Shown here: positions 4,128 to 54,482 of the stretch, piece after piece
Numbering within the stretch: position 1 is the stretch's first letter
Layout of the letters: every line of letters begins with the position of its first letter
DNA from: Candidatus Roizmanbacteria bacterium
GTDB lineage: Bacteria; Patescibacteriota; Microgenomatia; UBA1406
NCBI GenBank assembly: GCA_024654535.1
Contig: JANLHL010000016.1
Coordinates: 160,626-224,625, forward strand
Length of the DNA stretch: 64,000 bases
Direction of reading: 5' to 3'
Notes under the pieces: model-generated
Databases searched by the model: none
What the model saw: only the letters and a program-made list of their open reading frames with translations
Told to the model about the DNA's origin: nothing
Position numbers and translations under genes: made by a program

Positions 4128-5132
4128 TTAACGCACGCCATACATGGTGTCGGCGAGTGAATGAATGGTACTTATCAATTCTGAGTTTTTAAGTACAGAC
4201 TGTAGCGTACCTTCTGGCATGATTGGCTTGCCAGAGCGCATCCAATTGTTCGTTAGTGTATCTATGGTTCTCTCTATTTGTGGCGTTTTCTGAGCTGCAC
4301 TGGCAGCCATATATAAATACTGATCTCCGTGACTAGACTGCCATGGCGCCTCATTAGCAAATATAGCGTTGGCAAAAGAATTACCAACAACAAGTAATGG
4401 GAATACATCGAATATGCGCCATAGATCGCTCGTTGCATTCGTCATTTCATTTATTGCAATTGATGCACCAATTTTCTGAAGAACAGAAGTGTTCGTAATT
4501 GCTTGATTATCTGAGCTTTGAAAAGTCATTCCATCTTCTCGTAATATATTTATCAGATCCCTCTGCATTCTAAAACCAAACGCGTGTGATACATATTCTT
4601 TCGCTAAAAACTGTGCAATAATAAAATCCGTGTTCAACGTTAATTGCTCTGTTCGCCCAAGATTTATGCCAAAATACAGTGAGCTAAATGGCTTACCGGT
4701 GTGGACACTCTTATCAGGCATAGTGTATATAAATCCAGCGTTAGGATCTTGTTCCCAACTTTCGATACCAAGTGCAGCCAAAGACGCATTGTTTCTATCT
4801 GTCATTATAGGCATCGGAAATGATCCCTCGTTCACATAATCTGGAAAATCTGCTGGTCGCGAACGCGCAGTTGCTAATGCTTGGATCTGGTCAGCTGCAA
4901 ATCCATAAAAGGGGACTCTACTCCCTTTTAGATTGGCTAAGTATTTTTCCAAATCTACTTCGGCAAGGAAATCTTTACCAACAAGCCCAGGTATGTGTGA
5001 CACTGCTTCGGGATTGTATCCAGGAATAACAGCGTTTGCTCCTTCTCCTGAAGCACATGCAGCAAGCACAAGACCTAATACCGCAGCGGGTGGAATCAGG
5101 CAAAAGGCTCTCCTTGAAATATCTGTTTTCAT
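4128..5132 (-). CDS. Putative Tat-exported lipoprotein, unknown function
   Basis: MKTDISRRAFCLIPPAAVLGLVLAAC: SRRxFxL Tat-like motif plus lipobox LAAC. No recognisable catalytic motif. Confidence 0.65.
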   Translation of the reverse strand: MKTDISRRAFCLIPPAAVLGLVLAACASGEGANAVIPGYNPEAVSHIPGLVGKDFLAEVDLEKYLANLKGSRVPFYGFAADQIQALATARSRPADFPDYVNEGSFPMPIMTDRNNASLAALGIESWEQDPNAGFIYTMPDKSVHTGKPFSSLYFGINLGRTEQLTLNTDFIIAQFLAKEYVSHAFGFRMQRDLINILREDGMTFQSSDNQAITNTSVLQKIGASIAINEMTNATSDLWRIFDVFPLLVVGNSFANAIFANEAPWQSSHGDQYLYMAASAAQKTPQIERTIDTLTNNWMRSGKPIMPEGTLQSVLKNSELISTIHSLADTMYGVR

Positions 5133-5207: not shown

Positions 5208-5330
5208 TTTTTGACATTTGAACTTTGACATTCAATTGGCATTTGACATTGAGATTTGGTCATTTATTTGTCATTAGAACTTTGTCATTTGACATTAATT
5301 GGATATTTGATATTGGATATTGGATATTTT
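5208..5330 (+). repeat. Heptamer array, forward orientation (TTTGACA/TTTGAAC/TTGGATA words)
   Basis: Reads tttgaca tttgaac tttgaca ttcaa ttggca tttgaca ttgaga tttggtca tttat ttgtca ttagaac tttgtca tttgaca ttaa ttggata tttgata ttggata ttggata. Same vocabulary as the nine other intergenic sites. Confidence 0.9.
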
Positions 5331-10395: not shown

Positions 10396-11125
10396 ACAAA
10401 CAATCAACGAAAACTACTGGGACAAATATAATAAAGGCTACGGCAAAACGTGGAATGTAAAAACGCGCGCGTTGCTTTCAAAAAAAGAACTCGGATTTAT
10501 ACAAAAATATATTCCTGATTTACAACGTGCAACCATTCTAGATGTTGGGGTAGGTACCGGAAGAATTCTGAACTTCCTAATAAATAAATCAAAAAAAGAT
10601 GCATCCATATACGGCATTGATGTATCACAAAAAATGGTTGACTATTGCAAAACTATATTTGGGAAACAAAAAAAAATAAAAGAGATCAAACGCATTTCTC
10701 TCTCGAAGAAAAAAGGCTACATATTCAACGGAGTGAAATTCAGTCTTATCTCCGCAATCAGAGTATTGAAATATAATGCAGACTGGAAACAGTACATACA
10801 TACATTTAAAAATAATCTTGATAGAAATGGAGTTATGATTTTTACCATGCCAAATCGCGAGTCTCTCAATAAATTTGCACACTACACAATCCCATTTTAT
10901 AAATCAGATTATAAAGAAATACAGTCGGTTCTCGATACGAATAATTTAGAACTACTCGATATACAAACGTTTACACGGATACCCGATATTTTTTATGAAC
11001 TACCGCATCTGAAAAACACAAATTGGTATGCAACGCTTATAAATAGCACTGAGAGACTACTCAAGAGTATATTTGGCGCTCATAGATTCGGACGAATATT
11101 ATTTATCGCAGCCAGAAGAAAATGA
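10388..11125 (+). CDS. Class I SAM-dependent methyltransferase
   Basis: Motif I ILDVGVGTGRIL and overall Methyltransf_11/23-like layout. Confidence 0.8.
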   Translation: MTKQTINENYWDKYNKGYGKTWNVKTRALLSKKELGFIQKYIPDLQRATILDVGVGTGRILNFLINKSKKDASIYGIDVSQKMVDYCKTIFGKQKKIKEIKRISLSKKKGYIFNGVKFSLISAIRVLKYNADWKQYIHTFKNNLDRNGVMIFTMPNRESLNKFAHYTIPFYKSDYKEIQSVLDTNNLELLDIQTFTRIPDIFYELPHLKNTNWYATLINSTERLLKSIFGAHRFGRILFIAARRK

Positions 11126-12126
11126 AAATACATATTTCAATAATCATACCGGTTCGCGAAATAAATGATTATGTTACAAATGAAAATTTGCCTGCATTTG
11201 TACATCAAACGTACAAGAATTTCGAAGTTATAGTACTACCAAACGAATTGAGAAAAGAAGACAAAGCCCTTCTTACGAAGTATCCATTTTTGCGCATCAT
11301 CCCAACCGGTAACATAACGCGCCCTGCACTAAAAAGAGATATTGGGGCAAAGCACGCAAACGGAACTATTTTGGCCTTTATCGATGACGACGCTTATCCG
11401 AAAAGCGACTGGCTCAAACATGCTGAAACATTATTTACTAAAAAAGATGTTTCATGTGTTTGTGGGCCAGGGGTATTGCCAAAAAATACAAACATATGGG
11501 AAAAAGTATTTGATGAAATTCTTGTGAGCCCAGTAGGGAGTGGGGGATACGGGTATCGCTTTACCCCAAAAGAGACACGCTTTGTCGATGATTACCCTTC
11601 GATGAATTTTCTCATAACCAAAAAATTATTTACCCGTATCGGCGGATTTAATAATAATTTTTGGCCAGGAGAAGATAGTAAACTCTGTAACGATATTGTC
11701 TATAAAGAACACGAAAAAATTCTCTACTCTCCCAACGTTATCATCTATCACCACCGCAGAAATAGCCTCGTACCGTACTTACGCCAGCATATGCAATATG
11801 GATATCATAGAGGTGCGTTCATTGCTGTTGGCGATAAAAATTCACTTAAGATTAATTACTTTTTGCCACTATTTTTTCTATTATACTGCCTTTCTTTACT
11901 CGTACTTTTACCCTTTTTTACCCCACTATATTTTGCGCCACTTATTGCATATCTATTGTTAAGTGTTGTAATAGCAGTGCGTGCATTTTTAAAATACAAA
12001 AATATTTTTTATATAGTAGCTATTCCGAGTGTCTTATTTCTTACTCACATGCTTTACGGTATGTCTTTTCTGAAAGGTTTAGTTGTAGGTTTTATAAAAA
12101 GGGATAAAATATATGGGAATGAATAA
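11122..12126 (+). CDS. GT2 glycosyltransferase with C-terminal TM region
   Basis: ISIIIPVREINDYV, FIDDDAYP and WPGEDSKL motifs. ATGA overlap with the upstream gene. Confidence 0.8.
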   Translation: MKIHISIIIPVREINDYVTNENLPAFVHQTYKNFEVIVLPNELRKEDKALLTKYPFLRIIPTGNITRPALKRDIGAKHANGTILAFIDDDAYPKSDWLKHAETLFTKKDVSCVCGPGVLPKNTNIWEKVFDEILVSPVGSGGYGYRFTPKETRFVDDYPSMNFLITKKLFTRIGGFNNNFWPGEDSKLCNDIVYKEHEKILYSPNVIIYHHRRNSLVPYLRQHMQYGYHRGAFIAVGDKNSLKINYFLPLFFLLYCLSLLVLLPFFTPLYFAPLIAYLLLSVVIAVRAFLKYKNIFYIVAIPSVLFLTHMLYGMSFLKGLVVGFIKRDKIYGNE

Positions 12127-12200
12127 TATCCAATATCAAATATCCAATATCCAATAAAGTTCAAATGTCAAATGTCAAAATCAGATACTTGTCATTTGCA
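12125..12200 (-). repeat. Heptamer array, reverse orientation (TATCCAA/TGTCAAA words)
   Basis: aatatccaatatcaaatatccaatatccaataaagttcaaatgtcaaatgtcaaaatcag is the reverse complement of the vocabulary at 5208-5330. Confidence 0.9.
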
Positions 12201-12214
12201 TATAGGCTATAAGT

Positions 12215-12478
12215 TTGATTGAATATACGCTCATGGATAAAGCAACACTATATAAAAAGGGTGACATGGAGATTCGGGTACTGAGAAGCACCTGTATCGG
12301 AGCAGCAACATGTGTGGTGTACGCACCCAGCACGTTTGATCTTGATGATGACAGCATAGCGATAGTTAAAAATGGGCAGTGGGATAGCTTAGAAAAGATT
12401 ATTGCAGCTGCGCAGTCGTGCCCCGTTGTCGCAATCGAGGTATATGTGAAGGGTAAAAAAGTGTACCCCAAAGGGTAA
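12215..12478 (+). CDS. Small single-cluster ferredoxin
   Basis: MEIRVLRSTCIGAATCVVYAPSTFDLDDD...AAAQSCPVVAIEV: C-x2-A-x2-C ... C-P pattern of mono-cluster 3Fe/4Fe ferredoxins. Real start uncertain (TTG 12215, ATG 12233 or ATG 12266). Confidence 0.7.
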   Translation: MIEYTLMDKATLYKKGDMEIRVLRSTCIGAATCVVYAPSTFDLDDDSIAIVKNGQWDSLEKIIAAAQSCPVVAIEVYVKGKKVYPKG

Positions 12479-12573
12479 TATCCAAGTTCAAATATCCAAC
12501 TCGCCTGCCGGCGAGGCAGGTAAATGTCAAAGTTCAAATGTCCAGTTCTGATATTTGATATTGGGTATTGGAT
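12477..12573. repeat. Compact palindromic heptamer element (reverse words - GC hairpin - reverse words - forward words)
   Basis: aatatccaagttcaaatatccaa | ctcgcctgccggcgaggcagg (12500-12520) | taaatgtcaaagttcaaatgtccag | ttctgatatttgatattgggtattggat. The GC core CGCCTGCC...GGCGAGGCAGGTAAA is shared with 37175-37220 and 44464-44529. Confidence 0.85.
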
Positions 12574-29353: not shown

Positions 29354-30366
29354 CTAAATTACTAGTAACATTGTTTCGGTTAGTCAGTGCACAAATAAGG
29401 AAGTACAGAATATATTACTTACTTATCTGCATTTTATTATTACCCATATATTTTTTATCTCCAATAAAAATATATACAGTACTATTATTGATATTTCTAT
29501 TTTGGTTTCTTTCAATAGCAAACTATCGTGTTGCGCATTATATTTCCTTTACTCCAGTATTACTATTTATTTCTCTTTGTCCAATTTTTCTTTTATTTGG
29601 GAATAGCGTTGCGGCAGAAAAATCCTCAATATTAGCGTATCTTTTATTGATCTCCGGACTTGTCTATTCGTTGACAATCCAATTATTTTATACTAATGAA
29701 ATTATAGAATATGATGAACTTATAACAGAGTTTATGCGCAGTACTAAAGCACTAGTACCTATCAAAGCTGAATATAATAAACTCCAGAGAATTATTAGCA
29801 AAATTTTAAAAAAATTACTAAATACAAATCCACAAACCGCACTTGATTACATACTAAACTTGATGAAAATTATACTGTTACTGTCAGTAACAGTATTTGT
29901 TTTATCTTTTTCAGCAAATATAATTAGTGGGTTCATAAAATATGCACTTGTCATACAAAGAGCTGAACAAAAGAGAAATACCAGGCTATCACTTAATCCA
30001 AACATAGACAAAGTTGAGCCATATTTGGTATATTCTGGAAATAAAGTAATTATTTATGGAAAAAGATTTGGTTGGAAAGGAGGTGAAAATGTTTTACTTA
30101 CAAAGGGAAATGAAACTATTATTACCGAACTTTGGACTGATACAAAAATAATTTTTACTGTCCCTTTGGGGTGGAAGCCGGGAAATATTCCGTTAGTTAT
30201 TAGAAAGCAAATACATTGGGAAAGAAAAAATACTTATGCAGAGAGCAAAAAAGTGTCAATTAAATTATTGAAAAGTACTGGTAAAATTAATACAGATGAC
30301 GACGCTTATTTTGAGCAACTCAAAACATTGTCACCTGAAACGTTAAAAATGAATGGCTATGAATAA
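29350..30366 (+). CDS. Membrane protein with C-terminal IPT/TIG-like beta domain
   Basis: Several N-terminal TM helices. C-terminus VEPYLVYSGNKVIIYGKRFGWKGGENVLLTKGNETIITELWTDTKIIFTVPLGWKPGNIPLVI matches the IPT/TIG pattern. ATGA overlap. Confidence 0.5.
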   Translation: MTKLLVTLFRLVSAQIRKYRIYYLLICILLLPIYFLSPIKIYTVLLLIFLFWFLSIANYRVAHYISFTPVLLFISLCPIFLLFGNSVAAEKSSILAYLLLISGLVYSLTIQLFYTNEIIEYDELITEFMRSTKALVPIKAEYNKLQRIISKILKKLLNTNPQTALDYILNLMKIILLLSVTVFVLSFSANIISGFIKYALVIQRAEQKRNTRLSLNPNIDKVEPYLVYSGNKVIIYGKRFGWKGGENVLLTKGNETIITELWTDTKIIFTVPLGWKPGNIPLVIRKQIHWERKNTYAESKKVSIKLLKSTGKINTDDDAYFEQLKTLSPETLKMNGYE

Positions 30367-31177
30367 AATACCACCACTATCAATAATCATTGCAACCTAT
30401 GGGCGGGGAAAAGATGCATATGTTCTTGCCCAAAAATGCATAAATGCAGTACCAAATTGTGAAGTTATAATTGTTGAACAGCCAGTAGGTGATAGTTATT
30501 CGCTCCTAGAAAAATCAAGTGAAAATGTGTGTATAGTTCATCAAGAAAAAGCCAATCTACCCGCAGCACGAAATAGGGGAGTGCGTTTAGCGAAGTCAAA
30601 CATTGTTCTTTTTTTAGATGATGATGTTCAGATATCAAAACAAGCGCTACAAGCGCATATAGATGCATACAAAAAAGACAATAAACTAGGTGGCGTTGCT
30701 GGGCGAGTACTGAATGAAAATGATCCAAAAGATTCACCCATAGCTCCAGTTGGCACAGCGAACAATTCGGGAACTATATTTCATCAAAACTTTTACAGTA
30801 CGAAAAAACAAAACGTACAGTTTGTCTACGGATGTAACATGTCATTCAAAAAAACAGCAATAGAAAAGGCAGGTTACTTTGATGAAAAGTTTCCACCGCT
30901 TTTTGAAGAAATAGACTTATCAGCGCGAATTAGTAAAAACTCTCCAATACTTTTTGAGCCAGAAGCACTTGCTATACACTTAAAAAAACAGACTGGCGGC
31001 GTACGGCAAGATAGCTCGAAAGTGTTTACAATGTACTATCAGGCTTACGGGCGATTTGTTAAGAAACATGTTTCATATGTATTACTTTTTTATACAGTTC
31101 CTGTGGTAATTATGCGCGCTTTTCGGGAAAGCGGGAGTAGGGGAGTAATGGCATTTATAAACGGCTTATTGAACTAA
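30353..31177 (+). CDS. GT2 glycosyltransferase
   Basis: LSIIIATYGRGKDAYVL, ARNRGVRLA and FLDDDVQ motifs. Confidence 0.8.
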   Translation: MAMNKIPPLSIIIATYGRGKDAYVLAQKCINAVPNCEVIIVEQPVGDSYSLLEKSSENVCIVHQEKANLPAARNRGVRLAKSNIVLFLDDDVQISKQALQAHIDAYKKDNKLGGVAGRVLNENDPKDSPIAPVGTANNSGTIFHQNFYSTKKQNVQFVYGCNMSFKKTAIEKAGYFDEKFPPLFEEIDLSARISKNSPILFEPEALAIHLKKQTGGVRQDSSKVFTMYYQAYGRFVKKHVSYVLLFYTVPVVIMRAFRESGSRGVMAFINGLLN

Positions 31178-32418: not shown

Positions 32419-32426
32419 GAATAGGG

Positions 32427-32488
32427 AATATCCAATTTCAAATATCCAATATCCAATAAAATCAAAATGACCAAATTAAAATGTCCAA
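32427..32488 (-). repeat. Heptamer array, reverse orientation
   Basis: aatatccaatttcaaatatccaatatccaataaaatcaaaatgaccaaattaaaatgtccaag. Confidence 0.9.
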
Positions 32489-32588
32489 GAAAACTAATAA
32501 TATAAAAGGTCATTGGAAAAGGGCAGAAGAGTAATTTTGTAGAGCATATGCGATAGTCTGTGTTTAAACTACATGTAAACTAAGAATC

Positions 32589-32921
32589 ATGTATGACCTG
32601 GAATCGAGAACAACTACGCTTGGACAAAATATAGTCGCATTCGTAAAAAAGCTTCCACGTAATCAGATTACCGATTCATTACTGATACAACTTATTCGTG
32701 CAGGAACTAGTATTGGCGCAAACTACTGTGAAGCAGATGGCGCAATGACAAAGGCTGATTTTAAAAATAAGATAACAATCTGTCGCAAAGAAGCAAAGGA
32801 GACTCGCTACTGGCTACGCGTAGTATGTTCAACATATCCTGGTCTTGAGAATAAGACAGATCTCCTTATACAAGAAGTTAGAGAATTGATATTCATATTC
32901 TCCGCGATTCTTAAAAAGTAA
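32589..32921 (+). CDS. Four-helix-bundle protein (23S rRNA intervening-sequence protein / Avd-like family)
   Basis: 110 aa. LLIQLIRAGTSIGANYCEADGAMTKADFKNKITICRKEAKETRYWLRVV is the hallmark core (S-x-x-A-N-I-x-E-G ... E-x-x-Y-W-L) of this family. TAAACT 32576-32581 lies 7 nt before ATG. Confidence 0.85.
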   Translation: MYDLESRTTTLGQNIVAFVKKLPRNQITDSLLIQLIRAGTSIGANYCEADGAMTKADFKNKITICRKEAKETRYWLRVVCSTYPGLENKTDLLIQEVRELIFIFSAILKK

Positions 32922-32925
32922 CTTT

Positions 32926-33067
32926 TTATTGGAAATTGGATATTGGATATTTATTGGGCTTTGGATATTGGATATTGGGTATTAACTTGATATTTGTCAT
33001 TGGGATTTTGTCATTCAATTGCCATTTGTCATTTGAACTTGGACATTTATTAGATATTGGATATTGG
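32926..33067 (+). repeat. Heptamer array, forward orientation
   Basis: tttattggaaattggatattggatatttattgggctttggatattggatattgggtattaacttgatatttgtcattgggattttgtcattcaattgccatttgtcatttgaacttggacatttattagatattggatattgg. Confidence 0.9.
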
Positions 33068-33072
33068 CTTTG

Positions 33073-33134
33073 CCCGCCGAAGCTCGACGAAGCGAATCTC
33101 GCCTACGCACAAGGCATCGGCGAGCGAAGGCGGG
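33073..33134. repeat. GC-rich imperfect hairpin appended to the heptamer array
   Basis: cccgcc (33073-33078) ... ggcggg (33129-33134), with inner ctcgcc (33098-33103) / ggcgag (33119-33124). Shares the words CTCGCC/GGCGAG/CGACGAAGC with the other GC cores. Confidence 0.7.
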
Positions 33135-33163
33135 ATATTGGGGTTTCTCTATCTATCCCATAG

Positions 33164-33172
33164 TGTTATAAT
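33164..33172 (+). promoter_or_regulatory. Extended -10 box TGtTATAAT, 5 nt before ATG 33178
   Basis: tgttataat at 33164-33172, spacer atctc, then ATG. No SD. Confidence 0.5.
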
Positions 33173-33177
33173 ATCTC

Positions 33178-34278
33178 ATGGCAACACCCGATAATGGCAG
33201 CGAACTCGTAACGCATCTCACAGATAAAGACTATATTCGATATGCACGCCATGAACTCGCATTGTTCGAAAAAGCAGCAATAGCTTTAAAAGGTAATCTA
33301 AATATCTTTGATCTGACGCATGCTACTACAGATCATGAGCTTGATGCAGCTTTGCTGTGTCATAGAGCAGCTGCTCGCTTTTTGCCGCCAGCAAGGAAAG
33401 GTGATGTATTTTTTGGAGAAGACTCGATAAATTTACTATCGTCAGAAATGTATACGACAGCTCAAATGTACAGATTACGTGGCTATCCATTTCCCATAGC
33501 AGGAAATATAGGGCTTATAGGTTCGGGAACAGCGATTCCAGAAGTTATTGGATTATCAAGACAAATTCAAGTTAGGGATCCATCCCTATTTCAGTTCGCT
33601 CTCAGTAATATCGCACAAGCATATAGGGATGCTCATCCTGCATACCTGTTTGACGAAAACTTTTTTAGAACGACTGATGAGGTTTCACAAACTGTTGGTT
33701 TAACCGCCACAACAAATAGAAGGCTCAATTTTTTTGCATTTGATCCTGGTCAATCTCAACAAACAGTGGGGGAACTAAGACGCAAATTTGCACCTGGCCA
33801 AAGAGTGGAATTTAAACGTGAAACGTTAAATTGGTTTCTCAATTCTCAAAAGTCAGGGTTTTCCGGCCTTGTTTGGAATAGAGCAGACCCAGCAGTACTT
33901 TTTAATGGAGAAAGTTTTGGTAGAAAAACAACTGGAATATTGTCTGTAAAGAATCCAACACCAGCGCTTTTTGGAGCGATATTTTCTGAAGAACTAATAA
34001 CGGTAGATAGACTTGTGACTAATCTCATGCGAAAGCTACTTCCTGGTGGTGCCTGCTATATTACTGTTGGTCTGGGTAATCTTATAGATAGTGATGTCGA
34101 ATATGATATGCGGAGGATTTTTACATCACTTTTAGTAGGTGCTGGTCAATCTAGTCAATATTGCAGTGTGGCAGAAATGTTTCCCATTACCAAAAATAAC
34201 GAAATACGAAACCTCATGCCCCAGGCAAGTACATGGTGCGCATATCTACAAAAACCAAGCCGTCCTCCAAGAAAATAG
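33178..34278 (+). CDS. Hypothetical protein (possible divergent Rossmann/methyltransferase-like fold)
   Basis: 366-aa ORF with no clear family. NIGLIGSGTAIPEVIGL, FFAFDPGQS and LLPGGACYITV loosely resemble methyltransferase motifs I, II and post-III. Confidence 0.6.
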   Translation: MATPDNGSELVTHLTDKDYIRYARHELALFEKAAIALKGNLNIFDLTHATTDHELDAALLCHRAAARFLPPARKGDVFFGEDSINLLSSEMYTTAQMYRLRGYPFPIAGNIGLIGSGTAIPEVIGLSRQIQVRDPSLFQFALSNIAQAYRDAHPAYLFDENFFRTTDEVSQTVGLTATTNRRLNFFAFDPGQSQQTVGELRRKFAPGQRVEFKRETLNWFLNSQKSGFSGLVWNRADPAVLFNGESFGRKTTGILSVKNPTPALFGAIFSEELITVDRLVTNLMRKLLPGGACYITVGLGNLIDSDVEYDMRRIFTSLLVGAGQSSQYCSVAEMFPITKNNEIRNLMPQASTWCAYLQKPSRPPRK

Positions 34279-34305: not shown

Positions 34306-34405
34306 TAATATTTGATATTTGACATTGGGATTTGGACATTTATTTGATATTTGACATTTGAACTTTGACATTTGACATTTATTTGATATTGGTTATTGGA
34401 TATTT
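34306..34405 (+). repeat. Heptamer array, forward orientation
   Basis: taatatttgatatttgacattgggatttggacatttatttgatatttgacatttgaactttgacatttgacatttatttgatattggttattggatattt. Confidence 0.9.
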
Positions 34406-34421
34406 AGTTTATAATTACCCT

Positions 34422-35714
34422 ATGCACAAACGCTCCGCATTCATTATCACCCTCATATTTGGCCTTACCTCTGTCGCAAATATTGCTGCACAAATAGTCA
34501 TTGCGCGCGTATTTGGTATTTCACTCGAACTCGATGCATTTTTAATCGCAGTAGCACTGCCAACGATGATAATAGCTGTTTCATACGCCAGTATAAACGA
34601 TACATTCCTACCGCAATATAGCACAGCAAAGCACACAGACGAAGCACGCAAAGTTGCAGGTTCATGGGTACGCACAATAGCCGTACTAGCAGCAAGCTTG
34701 AGCTTGCTCTTCTTTCTTTTCCCACGTGAAATACTGACCCTCTTATTTTCGACAGTATCAGAGCAATCGTACCAGTACCTTCAGATACTTGCGCCTGCGT
34801 GTTTCTTTGGCATGCTGACGGCATTGTTTATGAGTATTAGCTACAGTCATAAGCATTTCTTACTACCTCCTCTCGTACAGCTTGTGGGGGCCACTATAAA
34901 TATTGCCCTTATTTGGTTCTTATTCCCATATGTTGGAGGGCTTGCGCTCCCTTTTGCTTTTGTTGGCAACTATGTGCTCCAATTTCTCTTCGTTGTCAGT
35001 AACATACGCTATGCAAATTTAAAAGCAAGCCTCGTATCATTTCCTCAACTATTGCCGCTTTTTATACTTTTTGGCACGTATTTGCTCATGCGCACCGACA
35101 CGCTGCTCTTACGATTCGCAAGCGTAGGCTTGGGTACAGGGGCTGTGAGCTTGGTAAACTACAGCGCGCGCATGATGAGCATGCCCAGCGGTCTTATAAC
35201 CTCGGGTATAAAAGTTATTTTACTACCACTCTTGGCCGAAACAGTGCGCAATAACAATACGAGTCGCTTTTCTTCTCTCTATACAAAAGCAATACTTTTT
35301 GCACTACTACTGACAATTATTGCTGTCGTTACAATGGTAATCATCTCACTGCCGCTTCTTAAAATTCTCTTTGTCAGAGGTAAGTTTACCTTTGCTGACG
35401 CGATACAGGTGAATACTCTTATACCGTGGTTTATACCTGCAGCACTTGGCTGGGGACTCTTTGAAATTGCAAGCGCTCCTTTTTTTGCAGTGAAGAAGTA
35501 TGTACCAGTTGCGCTTACCACTACATGCAGTTTTCTCATATCACTCGCAGTTATTTTTCTATTCAAGCAAACACTCGGTGTGTATACAGCAGCTCTCGCA
35601 ACGGGGAGCTTATTGGGAGTCAATACCGTTTTGTTACTTGTGGTATGGCAGGTAAATAAGGGGAAATACATGGAGGAGAAGAATATCCAATATCAAATAT
35701 CCAATGTCAAATAA
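34422..35714 (+). CDS. murJ: Lipid II flippase MurJ (MviN family, MOP superfamily)
   Basis: N-terminus SVANIAAQIVIARVFGISLELDAFLIAVALP matches the MurJ signature (R..G....DAF..A..lP), with about 14 TM helices. ATG 34422 preferred, because track start 34365 translates the array. TATAAT 34410-34415 lies 6 nt upstream. Confidence 0.8.
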   Translation: MHKRSAFIITLIFGLTSVANIAAQIVIARVFGISLELDAFLIAVALPTMIIAVSYASINDTFLPQYSTAKHTDEARKVAGSWVRTIAVLAASLSLLFFLFPREILTLLFSTVSEQSYQYLQILAPACFFGMLTALFMSISYSHKHFLLPPLVQLVGATINIALIWFLFPYVGGLALPFAFVGNYVLQFLFVVSNIRYANLKASLVSFPQLLPLFILFGTYLLMRTDTLLLRFASVGLGTGAVSLVNYSARMMSMPSGLITSGIKVILLPLLAETVRNNNTSRFSSLYTKAILFALLLTIIAVVTMVIISLPLLKILFVRGKFTFADAIQVNTLIPWFIPAALGWGLFEIASAPFFAVKKYVPVALTTTCSFLISLAVIFLFKQTLGVYTAALATGSLLGVNTVLLLVVWQVNKGKYMEEKNIQYQISNVK

Positions 35715-35760
35715 ATGACAAAGTTCAAGTGACAAATGGCAAATAAATAAGAAAATCCAA
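35682..35760 (-). repeat. Heptamer array, reverse orientation
   Basis: aatatccaatatcaaatatccaatgtcaaataaatgacaaagttcaagtgacaaatggcaaataaataagaaaatccaa. Overlaps the last codons of murJ. Confidence 0.9.
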
Positions 35761-37131
35761 ATGGCAAAAATAATCAAAAAATACCTACCTATAACCTTAA
35801 TATTACTGGCTGCTACATTTCTGCGCTTTTATCGCTTGAAAGATTTTTTTCCGTACACCATCGATGAAGAATACTTGTCGCAACTTGCCTGGACAATTGT
35901 GCACGATTTCCATGTTATTTGGATCGGAGTGAGCGCAGGCAGTACAAACTTTTATTTAGGCCCTGGATATATATATGTCACCGCATTTCTCTTGTGGATA
36001 GGGAGGGGGAATCCACTCGCACTTGCATACTGGGTATCGTTTATTGGAGTTGCAACGGTTTTCAGCATGTGGTGGATAGTGAAAAAAGCTATAACACCGA
36101 AAGCCGCTCTTATCGCTTCATCGATCTATGGTTTTTCATACTTTATTGCTCTGTATGACCGCCATTTCTGGCCACCAATCGTAAGTTTCACACTACTGTG
36201 GATGGCGTATTTTTTATGGGAAGCGCGCAAGGATACACGCTGGCTTATACCATTTTTTTTCGTTCTTGGAGTAAGTTTACATTTGCATTTATCACTTTTC
36301 GTTTGCGCCCCTATCGCACTATGGGTAGTTCTACGAAATAGAAAACAACTACGTCTTAGCACGATACTACTATATGTCATAAGCTATGTACTGGCAGTAA
36401 GCCCGCTTATTGTCTATGATTTTGTCCACAATTTCGACAATCTGCGAGCACCTTTTTTAATGCTTTCTCATAGTTCAGGTGGTTCTCTCAACCTAGTCCC
36501 TCGACTTTCTACTATGTTGATTGTTGTGAGTAAAATAGTAGATCCAGCCACTTCAACCGTCTTTTTGGGAACGATACTTGTTCTGTTTTGTGCACTAGGA
36601 GTCTTTGCTCTTCGAAAAAAAATACCCAGCTTTATTGCACTTTCTCTAGCAACGTTCGGTTTGTTAACAGTACTTTTTTTCATCTACCCAGGGCGAGTTG
36701 AAGAATACTATCTTATCGGCACGTTTCCATTCATAGCAGTTCTTTTTTCCTATGTATTACAAAGCTTCGTTCCACAGAAACCACTCATCTTTTTGCTTAG
36801 CATATTTCTCGTCTCAAGTATTTTTATGCTCGCGACCACAAAACCTCTTTACAACGCTTACTCACAGAAAGAAAAAGTAATTGAAGCAATTAAAAAAATA
36901 ACAAAAAATGAGCCTATACTTTTAAATACTAAAGGCCCTTACGTATTCGACGGAGGGTGGCATTTTCTCTTTACACAAGCAGGTATTCCGGTTACACAAG
37001 GATCCTCAAGCGAAATGTACAACTGGATATACACACAGTACTATACCCCTCCAACAAGAGCTGTCTACACAGTGATTCTAGAAAATAAAGATGGAGGAGT
37101 AAAGTATACGATAAACCCAAATATCCAATAA
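35761..37131 (+). CDS. GT-C membrane glycosyltransferase (ArnT/PMT-like)
   Basis: Polytopic. First loop FPYTIDEEYLSQLAWTI (DEE). The 3' end runs into the next array. Confidence 0.7.
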   Translation: MAKIIKKYLPITLILLAATFLRFYRLKDFFPYTIDEEYLSQLAWTIVHDFHVIWIGVSAGSTNFYLGPGYIYVTAFLLWIGRGNPLALAYWVSFIGVATVFSMWWIVKKAITPKAALIASSIYGFSYFIALYDRHFWPPIVSFTLLWMAYFLWEARKDTRWLIPFFFVLGVSLHLHLSLFVCAPIALWVVLRNRKQLRLSTILLYVISYVLAVSPLIVYDFVHNFDNLRAPFLMLSHSSGGSLNLVPRLSTMLIVVSKIVDPATSTVFLGTILVLFCALGVFALRKKIPSFIALSLATFGLLTVLFFIYPGRVEEYYLIGTFPFIAVLFSYVLQSFVPQKPLIFLLSIFLVSSIFMLATTKPLYNAYSQKEKVIEAIKKITKNEPILLNTKGPYVFDGGWHFLFTQAGIPVTQGSSSEMYNWIYTQYYTPPTRAVYTVILENKDGGVKYTINPNIQ

Positions 37132-37398
37132 CCAATATCCAATAAATGTCAAATGACAAAGTCCTAATGACAAACCCGCCTGCCCGCTTCGACGCGAGGC
37201 GAGCCGGCGAGGCAGGTAAAGTTCAAAATCCCAATATCAAAAATAGTCGTCATTGCGAGGAACCCGCCTAAGGCGGGGACGAAGCAATCTAATCTGGAGA
37301 GATTGCCACACTCAACTTCGTTTCGCTCGCAATGACAAGGTTATTGGGCATTGGAACTTTGTCATTTATTTGATATTGGATATTTGAACTTTGACATT
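37119..37398. repeat. Composite palindromic element A (reverse heptamers - GC hairpin - reverse heptamers - GTCATTGCGAG hairpin - forward heptamers)
   Basis: Layout: 37119-37173 reverse words, 37175-37216 cccgcctgcc...ggcgaggcagg, 37217-37245 reverse words. 37248-37338 forms a stem tcgtcattgcgag / ctcgcaatgacaa enclosing cccgcc-taa-ggcggg (37263-37277) and gcaatct / agattgc (37284-37290 / 37300-37306). 37339-37398 carries forward words. Homologous to 44437-44726. Confidence 0.9.
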
Positions 37399-37450
37399 AA
37401 CAAGTTATTTGTTTTTCACAGCTTTTTTCAGTCTATGATAGACTAGTTTT

Positions 37451-44436: not shown

Positions 44437-44726
44437 ATCAAATATCCAATATCAAATGTCAAACCCGCCTGCCCGCTTCGACGCGCCTACGTCGACGCAG
44501 GCGCGAGGCGAGCCGGCGAGGCAGGTAAAGCTCCAAATCCCAACGCCAAAAACGATCGTCATTACGAGGTGGTAATTTAGTTTGTCGTTGCAAGGAGCGA
44601 AGTGACGAAGCAATCTTGTCAAAAGACAGGGGATTGCTTCGCTACGCTCGCAATGACAGGGTTATTGGACATTGGAGCTTTGTCATTTATTGGGTATTTG
44701 AACTTGGATATTGGATATTGGTTATT
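44437..44726. repeat. Composite palindromic element B (homologue of element A)
   Basis: Same order of parts as 37119-37398. The GC hairpin (44464-44525) is about 20 nt longer and contains the near-perfect palindrome gcgcctacgtcgacgcaggcgc (44483-44504). Core stem tcgtcattacgag / ctcgcaatgaca, with gaagcaatc / gattgcttc (9 bp). Forward words at 44660-44726. Confidence 0.9.
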
Positions 44727-54342: not shown

Positions 54343-54476
54343 AATATCCAATAGCAAATAAAGTCCCAATTCCCAATGTCAAAGGTCAAATGACAAATGT
54401 CAGAATTGGACATTGGAACTTTGTCATTTGTCATTCGTCATTCGTCATTCATTTGACATTGGATATTGGATATTGG
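54343..54476. repeat. Palindromic heptamer element C (reverse half then forward half, no core)
   Basis: 54343-54404 holds reverse words (aatatccaatagcaaataaagtcccaattcccaatgtcaaaggtcaaatgacaaatgtcag). 54405-54476 holds forward words, including the exact 7-nt register TTTGTCA TTTGTCA TTCGTCA TTCGTCA TTC (54421-54450) and TTGGATA TTGGATA. Confidence 0.9.
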
Positions 54477-54482
54477 AAACTT

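Follow-up and report, generated by a model that had tools for sequence, protein, structure and literature searches.

The window, the whole 64,000-nucleotide stretch of a Candidatus Roizmanbacteria contig analysed here, contains at positions 32589-32921 on the plus strand a gene for a four-helix-bundle (4HB) protein of 110 amino acids with a pI of 9.2. To our knowledge, the PF05635/TIGR02436 family, Avd apart, has no assigned function. Profile searches showed that the 32589-32921 ORF matched PF05635 with 53.6 bits (gathering score 33.8) and TIGR02436 with an E-value of 8.8e-20 (71 bits, cut-off 24), while PDB 2RLD was found as a sequence-level match. The AlphaFold model of the protein had four helices with a pLDDT of 96.3, and its TM scores were 0.88 for 2RLD, 0.87 for 2GSC, and 0.70-0.77 for bAvd (4DWL, 8UB7), although the sequence identity to Avd was only 10-15%. 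Thus, the profile searches and the structure matches confirmed the IVS/Avd-like four-helix-bundle identity given in the preliminary description. The conserved motif R-x3-S-x3-N-x2-E reported for the family (PMC3936711) was present in the protein as R37-AGT-S41-IGA-N45-YC-E48, and in alignment A1 Ser-41 and Asn-45 were invariant and Glu-48 nearly so. The family is large, with 6,889 clusters (at 50% identity) matching the 110-aa protein at E <=0.001; the exact sequence of the protein had no database record, and the 64-kb window contained no second PF05635-type ORF. The solved relatives 2RLD and 2GSC each have five chains in the crystal. The HEPN 'LA2681' family was considered as a home of the 4HB proteins and dropped; the HEPN-superfamily paper makes no mention of them.

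The gene lies within a cassette at 32419-33157, delimited by synteny with a related locus without the cassette (L087); it begins at the base after the stop codon of the upstream gene and ends immediately upstream of the conserved promoter of the following gene. The left arm (32427-32488) is a reverse heptamer array with AATATCC-type units outside and AAATGAC/AATGTCC-type units inside, as shown by Tandem Repeats Finder (TRF; period-7 AATATCC array at 32427-32458, running on to 32488), inverted repeats I1-I12 and unit clusters. Between the left arm and the start codon is a leader of about 100 nucleotides on the plus strand (32489-32588), which was recognized by alignment with loci L088, L001 and L099 and is kept in the cassettes of relatives, including a copy at another genomic site. 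The right arm (32926-33067) consists of forward heptamer arrays in the order TTGGATA-type, TTTGTCA-type and TTGGATA-type again (TRF, inverted repeats and unit clusters; TATTGGA arrays at 32927-32983 and 33048-33067). It also contains a GC-rich hairpin module (33073-33134; -30 kcal/mol, z = -2.8), followed on the 3' side by a last forward unit, GGATATTGGGG, read from the sequence at 33133-33143. Two related strains (L001 and L002) have a shorter and different hairpin at the position of this module, and the numbers of heptamer units differ among the window, L001, L002 and L087. The inverted-repeat search found arms spanning the ORF that were 100% complementary over 18 nt, 89% over 28 nt and 71% over 56 nt. 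Taken together, TRF, the inverted-repeat search and folding bore out the described arrangement of a reverse array to the left of the gene and forward arrays plus a GC hairpin to its right. The gene had also been placed between two glycosyltransferase genes. This holds for the upstream neighbour, which is glycosyltransferase-like (PMT_2 at 25.1 bits, just below the 26.1 cut-off), but not for the downstream gene of 366 amino acids, which had no match in Pfam.

Heptamer units are not confined to the cassette. TTGGATATTGG with at most one mismatch occurred 35 times in the window versus 1.7 expected, a count reached by no shuffle, and the window had 11 clusters of at least three units versus 0.1 in first-order Markov simulations that kept the dinucleotide frequencies. 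Arrays were present in about 10 spacers, squeezed tightly between stop codons and promoters. Two ORF-less palindromic elements, at 37118-37400 (reverse array, two GC hairpin modules, forward array; fold z = -7.0) and at 44437-44726 (reverse array, GC hairpins, forward array; unit clusters, direct-repeat search and folding), have hairpin modules of families D2, D4 and D5 in common, and the former is missing from the corresponding spacer in strain L001. Because both elements are ordered as reverse array, GC hairpins and forward array, the 4HB gene takes the position of their core, as had been proposed. A third ORF-less element without a GC core (54345-54477; unit clusters) has a reverse array followed directly by a forward array. 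The region 12125-12573 has a reverse array (12125-12179), a ferredoxin gene (12233-12478), and then a reverse array, a GC hairpin and reverse plus forward arrays (12478-12573). Unit clusters also revealed solitary arrays: a forward array upstream of a plus-strand gene (5210-5328), another forward array before murJ (34308-34405), with about 14 units compared with only about 3 in L087, and a reverse array overlapping the murJ stop codon (35682-35760). The unit type of the ORF-less arrays of a genome was that of the arrays around its 4HB gene.

Neither rRNA nor a retroelement was found around the gene, in agreement with the preliminary description. No Rfam family reached its gathering score in the window and no tRNA was found, and a conserved 23S motif was absent in 86 of 86 loci. 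Among ORFs of at least 150 amino acids, the reverse transcriptase motif Y/F-x-DD occurred only at 30353-31174 and 11086-12123, both on the plus strand; the former, which was the one checked against Pfam, is a glycosyltransferase family 2 gene. A search for a template repeat/variable repeat (TR/VR) pair found none in the window, in which direct repeats of at least 45 nt were heptamer arrays and hairpin modules only. These results bear on the idea that the gene is a remnant or accessory of a diversity-generating retroelement (DGR), namely an Avd gene left after loss of the reverse transcriptase. The fold resembles that of bAvd, and no family is commoner near DGRs than PF05635 (PMC10053308), but the low sequence identity to Avd and the 64 kb without a reverse transcriptase motif or a template/variable repeat pair argue against it, and the inspected homologous loci were flanked by housekeeping or unrelated operons. 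We therefore regard a DGR origin as highly improbable.

To compare the window with other genomes, we used the 80 best relatives together with 12 plasmid loci and 2 phage-contig loci, which came mostly from metagenome-assembled genomes, in which repeats can be mis-assembled. A strict lag-7 identity scan, which missed most arrays because the units vary, was dropped for an adjacent-unit regular expression and an arm-to-arm alignment. In 81 loci, adjacent reverse-type units had a density of 3.39 per kb within 250 nt upstream of the 4HB gene, and adjacent forward-type units one of 4.32 per kb within 250 nt downstream of it, compared with 0-0.3 per kb elsewhere and 0.15-0.25 per kb for the wrong orientation beside the gene. 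Correctly oriented units were thus enriched about 40-fold beside the gene in 80 homologous loci of many lineages. Period 7 was dominant in the flanks, and inspection of the 20 loci missed by the regular expression showed that they, too, have inverted arrays, with units of other types. The arms also fitted their own partners: the median alignment score was 42 for the arms of the same locus, 27 for arms of other loci and 17 for displaced controls (Wilcoxon p = 7e-14), and the own-arm score was above every control in 60 of 78 loci. The complementarity of the arms therefore exceeds that expected from shared low-complexity words.

The gene with its arrays was found in 15 or more bacterial phyla or candidate phyla, with the association present for copies in Cyanobacteria, Bacteroidota, Chloroflexota and Spirochaetota. 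The same architecture was found on plasmids of Nostoc, Planktothrix, Anabaena, Chondrinema, Chlorohelix, Treponema and Bernardetia and in two GC-rich phage contigs, so that other 4HB copies are indeed bracketed by arrays. In Xanthomonas, a published table places a GGGAATC array across the start codon of XCC0516, the gene of the protein in PDB 2GSC. It could be argued that slippage produced heptamer repeats in many spacers and that a resident small gene happened to lie between two of them, as the arrays in about 10 spacers of the window, including those flanking murJ and the ferredoxin gene, might suggest. However, such a coincidence is very hard to reconcile with an orientation-specific enrichment beside homologous genes in unrelated lineages, with arms that fit their own partner better than other arms, and with arrays that stay with the gene in GC-rich phage contigs and within a Nostoc ORF. 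We give it almost no credence, all the more as the related locus L087 has neither the gene nor the arrays.

Locus L087 is syntenic with the window and represents an empty site. It keeps the orthologue of the PMT_2-like gene (87% amino acid identity) but has only 38 nt between the two genes, compared with about 760 in the window, and homology resumes at ATAGTGTTATAAT. The spacer has diverged, which obscures the junctions in the window. In locus L099, the cassette with its leader is at a different genomic site, and positions 182-711 of L099 and 32427-32951 of the window are 77.7% identical over 533 nt. The flanks of L099 and L097 are 93-97% identical, while their 4HB genes are only 72% identical and inverted relative to each other. 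In Nostoc punctiforme, the cassette is inside a 138-codon ORF that is intact on the sister plasmid of Nostoc sp. C052, and homology between the two stops at the outer ends of the arrays. This is the single case in which the junctions could be resolved; no target-site duplication was seen there, and about 270 nt of the target are missing. Three near-identical copies in Nostoc flagelliforme are within larger segmental duplications and so provide no cassette boundaries. Thus, gain, loss and exchange affect the cassette as a whole, up to the outer edges of the arrays. Its sites are short spacers that separate co-oriented genes, in many cases within operons, and occasionally the interior of a gene. 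The earlier suggestion that the unit could be mobile is strongly supported by the empty site, the second genomic site, the cassettes in opposite orientation and the disrupted Nostoc ORF.

The paralogues L020 and L028 have the arrays and the gene alone in common. Their identities are 92/95/60% at the three codon positions and 82-90% in the arrays, which exceeds the synonymous level. The 4HB protein is under strong purifying selection, and it is therefore not a mere passenger. Loci L059 and L078 have kept a 4HB copy at the same site in different species, which is as compatible with a retained host function as with a parasite.

These observations raise the possibility that the arrays are cis-regulatory operators, through which an oligomeric 4HB protein, bound to the tandem units as DNA or RNA, would regulate its own gene and, in trans at the ORF-less arrays of other spacers, adjust how strongly the adjacent genes are expressed; the cassette would then be a putative host module and not a parasite. 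The conservation of the L020/L028 arrays above synonymous sites, the orthologous retention in L059 and L078, the agreement in unit type between ORF-less arrays and those around the gene, and the tight packing of the window's arrays between stop codons and promoters would all be expected from operators; the five-chain crystals of 2RLD and 2GSC, and the action of Avd within a ribonucleoprotein, point in the same direction. On the other hand, a host regulatory module would not readily break an ORF as in Nostoc, the close relative L087 does without the cassette, different cassettes in opposite orientation are found at the same site in L099 and L097, and most of the 80 genomes have few arrays outside the surroundings of the gene. 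We consider the operator function possible but doubtful. It is compatible with the insertion-cassette explanation described below.

The 4HB gene has the same orientation as both neighbours in 56 loci and is opposite to both in only 1, and cassettes were located within atp, cas and RND operons. No promoter matching the sigma-70 consensus and no terminator of its own was found for the 4HB gene. When the cassette was folded, the arrays paired around the ORF in both the minimum free energy (MFE) and the centroid structures (z = -3.0), as had been suggested for the transcript. However, mismatches between the arms showed no G.U bias on the sense strand (125 sense versus 160 antisense, with 564 other mismatches across loci) and were mostly transversions; the sense and antisense duplex energies did not differ (p = 0.91), and GC-rich coding controls folded equally well. 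The pairing is thus predicted from folding, with no sense-strand signal in G.U pairs or duplex energy, and RNase III processing is proposed only by analogy with the rRNA intervening sequences (PMC4990558). Another idea is that the cassette acts as an mRNA intervening sequence, in which a stem cut by RNase III would uncouple the stability or translation of the flanking cistrons and the 4HB ORF would be a passenger. The predicted closing stem around the ORF, the strong co-orientation with the operon neighbours, the location within operons, and the cleavage of the rRNA versions by RNase III are in line with it. Nevertheless, the predominance of transversions without a sense-strand excess of G.U-compatible mismatches, the equal duplex energies of the two strands and the strong purifying selection on the 4HB protein speak against such a role, and we think it rather unlikely.

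We propose instead that the locus is a self-contained insertion cassette, the non-ribosomal counterpart of the 23S intervening sequences, and consider this explanation as a whole to be probable. The cassette consists of short tandem repeats, usually of 7 nt, as the left arm, one PF05635 gene, and a right arm reverse-complementary to the left one; GC hairpin modules have been added to it in this genome. The cassette would be transcribed by read-through from the host operon, and its arms may pair into a long stem like those of the rRNA versions; by analogy, this could open the way to RNase III-type processing, so that the insertion could be tolerated. The conserved, basic and probably oligomeric 4HB protein may bind the arrays as DNA or RNA and thereby serve the maintenance or spread of the cassette, and the scattered ORF-less palindromic arrays may be non-autonomous derivatives of the same element. 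As for how the cassette moves, no recognized transposase was found among the neighbours in annotated or inspected loci, which are unrelated host genes, and the 4HB gene is the only ORF of the cassette. We know of no strand-transfer chemistry for a 110-aa helical bundle. Since there is no transposase, integrase or reverse transcriptase nearby either, the exchange could be recombination and not transposition.

Intervening sequences in 23S rRNA genes of Leptospira and Coxiella burnetii and insertions in the rRNA of candidate-phyla bacteria contain an ORF of the same family as that of the window (for the candidate phyla, PMC11270868). The Coxiella intervening sequence has a 28-bp terminal stem, is cut by RNase III, and has been proposed to be of mobile origin (PMC4990558). 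As in the cassette, the ORF of the rRNA intervening sequences is enclosed by terminal inverted repeats for which a long closing stem is predicted; their distribution is likewise sporadic, and a mobile origin has been suggested (PMC4990558, PMC11270868). Unlike them, the cassette of the window lies between protein-coding genes, and its arms are tandem heptamer arrays instead of a single 28-bp repeat. Avd of the DGR of Bordetella phage BPP-1 (4DWL, 8UB7) is also a small basic protein with a four-helix-bundle fold of the same superfamily, but the gene in the window has no adjoining reverse transcriptase, template repeat or variable repeat. MITEs and REPINs with their autonomous partners resemble the window in having short palindromic non-coding copies beside a gene-bearing copy and in their presence/absence polymorphism between strains; they differ from the cassette, which has no transposase or RAYT-type gene and has tandem-array ends, and for which no target-site duplication was seen at the Nostoc junctions.

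Arrays of heptamers, known since 1990, occur more often than expected in many bacteria and still lack an explanation (PMC4692102, PMC4679880). The cyanobacterial STRR, the Xanthomonas GGGAATC and the Nostoc GGGGAYT arrays (PMC4692102) are intergenic tandem 7-nt units as in the window, and the TAACTGA repeats of Beggiatoaceae, cyanobacteria and Bacteroidetes (PMC4679880) are likewise comparable. As in the cassette, the published arrays are often inverted pairs within operons with strain-variable copy numbers, and the 4HB genes of Nostoc, Planktothrix and Chondrinema are flanked by arrays of the STRR-like heptamer kind. Both papers (PMC4692102, PMC4679880) discuss the arrays on their own, as G-quadruplex formers or translational signals, and do not mention the 4HB gene, and in the open-access literature we found no stated link between the PF05635 family and heptamer repeats. 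In a broader and tentative form of the explanation, which may well not hold, the PF05635 proteins would be the trans-acting partner of the heptamer arrays and would form with them a new class of mobile elements, with a helical bundle of about 110 amino acids, for which no transposase chemistry is known, as their sole protein. A putative ring oligomer would recognize the tandem units, ORF-less arrays (STRR, GGGAATC, TAACTGA and the window elements) would be non-autonomous progeny, the rRNA intervening sequences would represent a special insertion site, and the DGR Avd would be a domesticated offshoot.

Regardless, the consistent physical link joins the PF05635/TIGR02436 family with the unexplained heptamer arrays and provides a testable hypothesis for both, which can be tested in the culturable Nostoc punctiforme and Xanthomonas campestris, the latter with the structure 2GSC available. 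Annotators should be warned that N-terminal extensions annotated on 4HB proteins are translated repeat arrays. The 4HB genes described as 'associated' with cas operons (PMC3936711) can be re-read as insertions, and the cassettes would be a non-ribosomal reservoir from which the rRNA intervening sequences could have come. If the 4HB protein mediates the movement of the cassette, it would be a new kind of mobility factor.

The 110-aa ORF at 32589-32921 (forward strand) is a member of the PF05635/TIGR02436 four-helix-bundle (4HB) family of 23S rRNA intervening-sequence and Avd-like proteins, as the preliminary description had claimed, with profile-search matches of 53.6 bits to PF05635 (cut-off 33.8) and E 8.8e-20 to TIGR02436. 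A 100% identical protein encoded on a 356-kb contig places the source organism in Candidatus Roizmanbacteria, of the candidate phyla radiation. The AlphaFold model, made with 47 homologues as input, had four helices and a pLDDT of 96.3. Its closest folds were two pentameric crystal structures, 2RLD and 2GSC (TM 0.87-0.88); next came bAvd, the Avd protein of a diversity-generating retroelement (DGR), both on its own and within the DGR ribonucleoprotein (TM 0.70-0.77, 10-15% identity). The protein is basic (pI 9.2) and probably oligomeric. The 4HB genes of two paralogous loci in one genome (L020 and L028) are 92/95/60% identical at the three codon positions, which therefore places the protein under purifying selection.

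The gene was confirmed to lie between inverted heptamer arrays and a GC hairpin. The left array (32427-32488) consists of AATATCC-type and then AATGNCC-type tandem heptamers, the right array (32926-33067) carries the reverse-complement units TATTGGA and TTTGTCA, and a 62-nt GC hairpin (33073-33134, -30 kcal/mol) is followed by one further unit. The arms share an 18-nt stretch of 100% complementarity; for 28 nt the figure is 89%, and for 56 nt it is 71%. Across the window, 35 matches to the unit words were observed versus 1.7 expected and 11 clusters versus 0.1 expected, and about ten spacers of the 64 kb carry such arrays. Their polarity is fixed, with TTGGATA-type units outside and TTTGACA/TTTGTCA-type units inside. 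In a complete element a reverse array comes first, then the core, then a forward array. Two ORF-less elements (37118-37400 and 44437-44726) follow this order with GC hairpin modules common to both as their cores, and the 4HB gene indeed takes the hairpin-core position. The fold of the entire 37115-37405 element had a z of -7.0.

The arrays abut or overlap stop codons and finish immediately ahead of promoters. Reverse arrays provide the final codons and the stop of murJ (35682-35714, ...NIQYQISNVK) and of a 456-aa gene (37118-37131, ...INPNIQ). A ferredoxin gene (Fer4_13, 12233-12478) within 12125-12573 is likewise bracketed, by a reverse array to its left and by a reverse array, a hairpin, and reverse and forward arrays to its right. 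The GC-rich hairpin module CCGCCTGCC...GGCGAGGCAGG is repeated at 37176-37222, 44462-44532 (with an additional nested palindrome) and 12496-12524, and at about 705-730 of a relative's cassette locus (L099); present in the cores of separate elements and in that cassette, it has the look of a small mobile hairpin in its own right that targets the arrays. A second core module (37243-37340 and 44556-44660), limited by GTCATTGCGAG...CTCGCAATGAC, folds strongly (z = -5.3 and -5.8), and its two copies have conserved stem ends but different interiors.

The window arrays are dynamic. The element at 37118-37400 is wholly absent from strain L001, L087 (a syntenic relative) has about 3 units versus about 14 at the matching window array, and beside the 4HB gene both the unit number and the hairpin of L001 and L002 are unlike those of the window. 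In L087 the gene order is the same and the orthologue of the upstream PMT_2-like protein is 87% identical, but the next gene begins 38 nt past the PMT_2 stop, with neither arrays nor a 4HB gene, and the promoter ATAGTGTTATAAT beyond the insertion point is kept. Thus, window positions 32419-33157 constitute one indel, hereafter the cassette.

A related cassette is found elsewhere. The L099 cassette is 77.7% identical to that of the window over 533 nt spanning the left arm, the leader, the ORF and the beginning of the right arm, and is placed between two genes quite unlike those at the window site. When L099 was compared with L097, the flanks were 93-97% identical while the 4HB genes were only 72% identical and oppositely oriented relative to the flanks; this is replacement or independent insertion rather than simple inheritance. 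Between L020 and L028, homology is confined to the stretch from one outer array end to the other. Plasmid pNPUN02 of N. punctiforme has a cassette within a 138-codon ORF whose counterpart in Nostoc sp. C052 is uninterrupted; homology ends at the outer array edges, the ORF has lost about 270 nt, and no duplication of the target was visible at this insertion. The empty site, the second site and the disrupted ORF strongly support the earlier suggestion of mobility, and show that the gene plus its arrays behaves as an insertion unit. Sister plasmids either have or lack the 138-codon ORF (L104 773-1189 versus L091 1375-1960, L102/L103), and the plasmid spacer holding it is a hotspot of small indels.

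To assess generality, we used 80 loci with 4HB relatives (47-56% identity) from species-representative genomes of Patescibacteria lineages, Omnitrophota, Cloacimonadota, Planctomycetota, Verrucomicrobiota, Chloroflexota, Nitrospirae and others. Read by eye, the flanks had reverse-type arrays directly upstream and forward-type arrays directly downstream. With a strict pattern of two adjacent units, reverse-type dimers within 250 nt upstream of the gene reached 3.39 per kb and forward-type dimers within 250 nt downstream of it reached 4.32 per kb, versus 0-0.3 per kb in all other bins to 3 kb and 0.15-0.25 per kb for wrong-orientation dimers beside the gene. The 20 loci missed by this pattern had inverted arrays of other units, such as the 9-nt CTAATTnnn/nnnAATTAG or CGAAT/ATTCG. 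Among 69 strongly periodic flanks, 52 had period 7 and 10 had period 9, while only 15 of 300 control segments were periodic. The arms could have matched merely through shared low-complexity words. However, the median local score was 42 for arms of the same locus versus 27 for arms of other loci, 19 when the arms were compared without inversion and 17 with displaced segments, and own arms exceeded every control in 60 of 78 loci (p = 7e-14), so this explanation fails. Taken together, the results show the gene-plus-arrays architecture and its generality. In L058 (Verrucomicrobiota), a 4HB cassette occupies the atpG-atpD spacer, and the other spacers of this atp operon (~2034, 4870-4884) carry arrays of a different unit (CCGATTA/CCAATTA) right before start codons.

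Searching plasmids by tblastn located the family chiefly in Nostoc and other cyanobacteria. The 4HB flanks are (AATTCAA)x4/(TTGAATT)x4 in Nostoc flagelliforme, (CAATTCG)x4.5/(CGAATTG)x4.5 in N. punctiforme, and AATCCCC and AATCGTA/TACGATT in Planktothrix. Heptamer arrays also accompany the gene in Treponema and Bernardetia, between cas2 and cas1 in Anabaena cylindrica, between two defence-type genes in Chlorohelix and, as TAACTGA-type units, between the two genes of an RND efflux operon in Chondrinema. Only two relatives were found among 2.9 million viral contigs, both with AT-rich inverted 7-mer arrays against a GC-rich background. On the Candidatus Chlorohelix plasmid (L094), a composite palindrome of ~100 nt (forward array, core, reverse array) is found in direct orientation on either side of the 4HB gene (1189-1557), and the stand-alone palindrome in that genome has the forward-to-reverse order, opposite to the window's. 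The Treponema saccharophilum plasmid (L095) has about 40 GAAAGnn units and then an inverted CTCTCCG array upstream of the gene at 1192, and its downstream arm is oriented like the inner upstream arm, which departs from the reverse-gene-forward order. For Xanthomonas campestris, published tables place GGGAATC arrays within operons as inverted pairs; one array lies 6 nt past accB (bccP) and overlaps the start codon of XCC0516. XCC0516 is the 2GSC protein; the paper on these arrays makes no mention of the 4HB family.

The 4HB gene is co-oriented with both neighbours in 56 loci and opposed to both in one. In most loci the reverse array extends into the start codon, and genes are often called from a start within it, so that the predicted proteins carry N-terminal extensions encoded by repeats; the window cassette instead has a conserved 100-nt leader between the left arm and the start. 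No consensus promoter or terminator was found for the window gene. These features suggest that the gene is expressed when transcription of the host operon reads through it. The arrays of L020 and L028, at 82-90% identity, far exceed the synonymous level and so are constrained or homogenised.

The preliminary description had proposed that the arrays could pair in a transcript. The predicted fold of 32419-33160 pairs the arms in both the MFE and centroid structures (z = -3.0), and the window arm duplex is more stable in the sense than in the antisense strand (-57.9 versus -38.3 kcal/mol). Across loci, however, there was neither a sense-strand G.U bias in arm mismatches nor a difference between sense and antisense duplex energies, and the arms may therefore owe their symmetry to a role at the level of DNA, for example as element ends or as sites of protein binding.

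The cassette was also described as lying between two glycosyltransferase genes. The upstream neighbour is glycosyltransferase-like (PMT_2 just under threshold), but the downstream 366-aa protein (33178-34278) had no Pfam match. The latter shares only 47% identity with its orthologue at the syntenic locus (L087 6001-7113), against 87% for the adjacent PMT_2-like protein, and just four relatives were found in 5.8 billion sequences, so the gene is very fast-evolving and lineage-restricted. An extended -10 box TGTTATAAT (33160-33180; L087 5980-6003), kept in L087, lies only 5 nt ahead of its ATG, which suggests a leaderless or near-leaderless mRNA. A TATAAT sits at a similarly short distance upstream of murJ (34410-34424).

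The interpretation in the preliminary description was largely right. No reverse transcriptase, TR/VR pair, rRNA or transposase was found near the cassette, in line with its remark that neither rRNA nor reverse transcriptase was in view. The cassette is not a DGR component, and because it is outside rRNA it is not an rRNA intervening sequence, although it may work like one. Its arms are heptamer arrays of the kind known as STRR, GGGAATC and TAACTGA repeats, and it is similar to an autonomous element accompanied by MITE-like derivatives, but has neither a transposase nor a target duplication. Following the rRNA precedent (PMC4990558), the arms would pair in the transcript and be cleaved by RNase III; the basic, probably oligomeric 4HB protein might bind the tandem units and promote maintenance or spread of the cassette, and the ORF-less palindromes could be its non-autonomous derivatives. 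The gene family and the arrays are each covered by published papers, and no published link between them was found in the literature open without subscription. It seems rather unlikely that the cassette stands for a truly new class of system, mobile or regulatory, with the 4HB protein at its centre; it is the local case of a widespread, as far as we found previously undescribed, association between 4HB genes and arrays.
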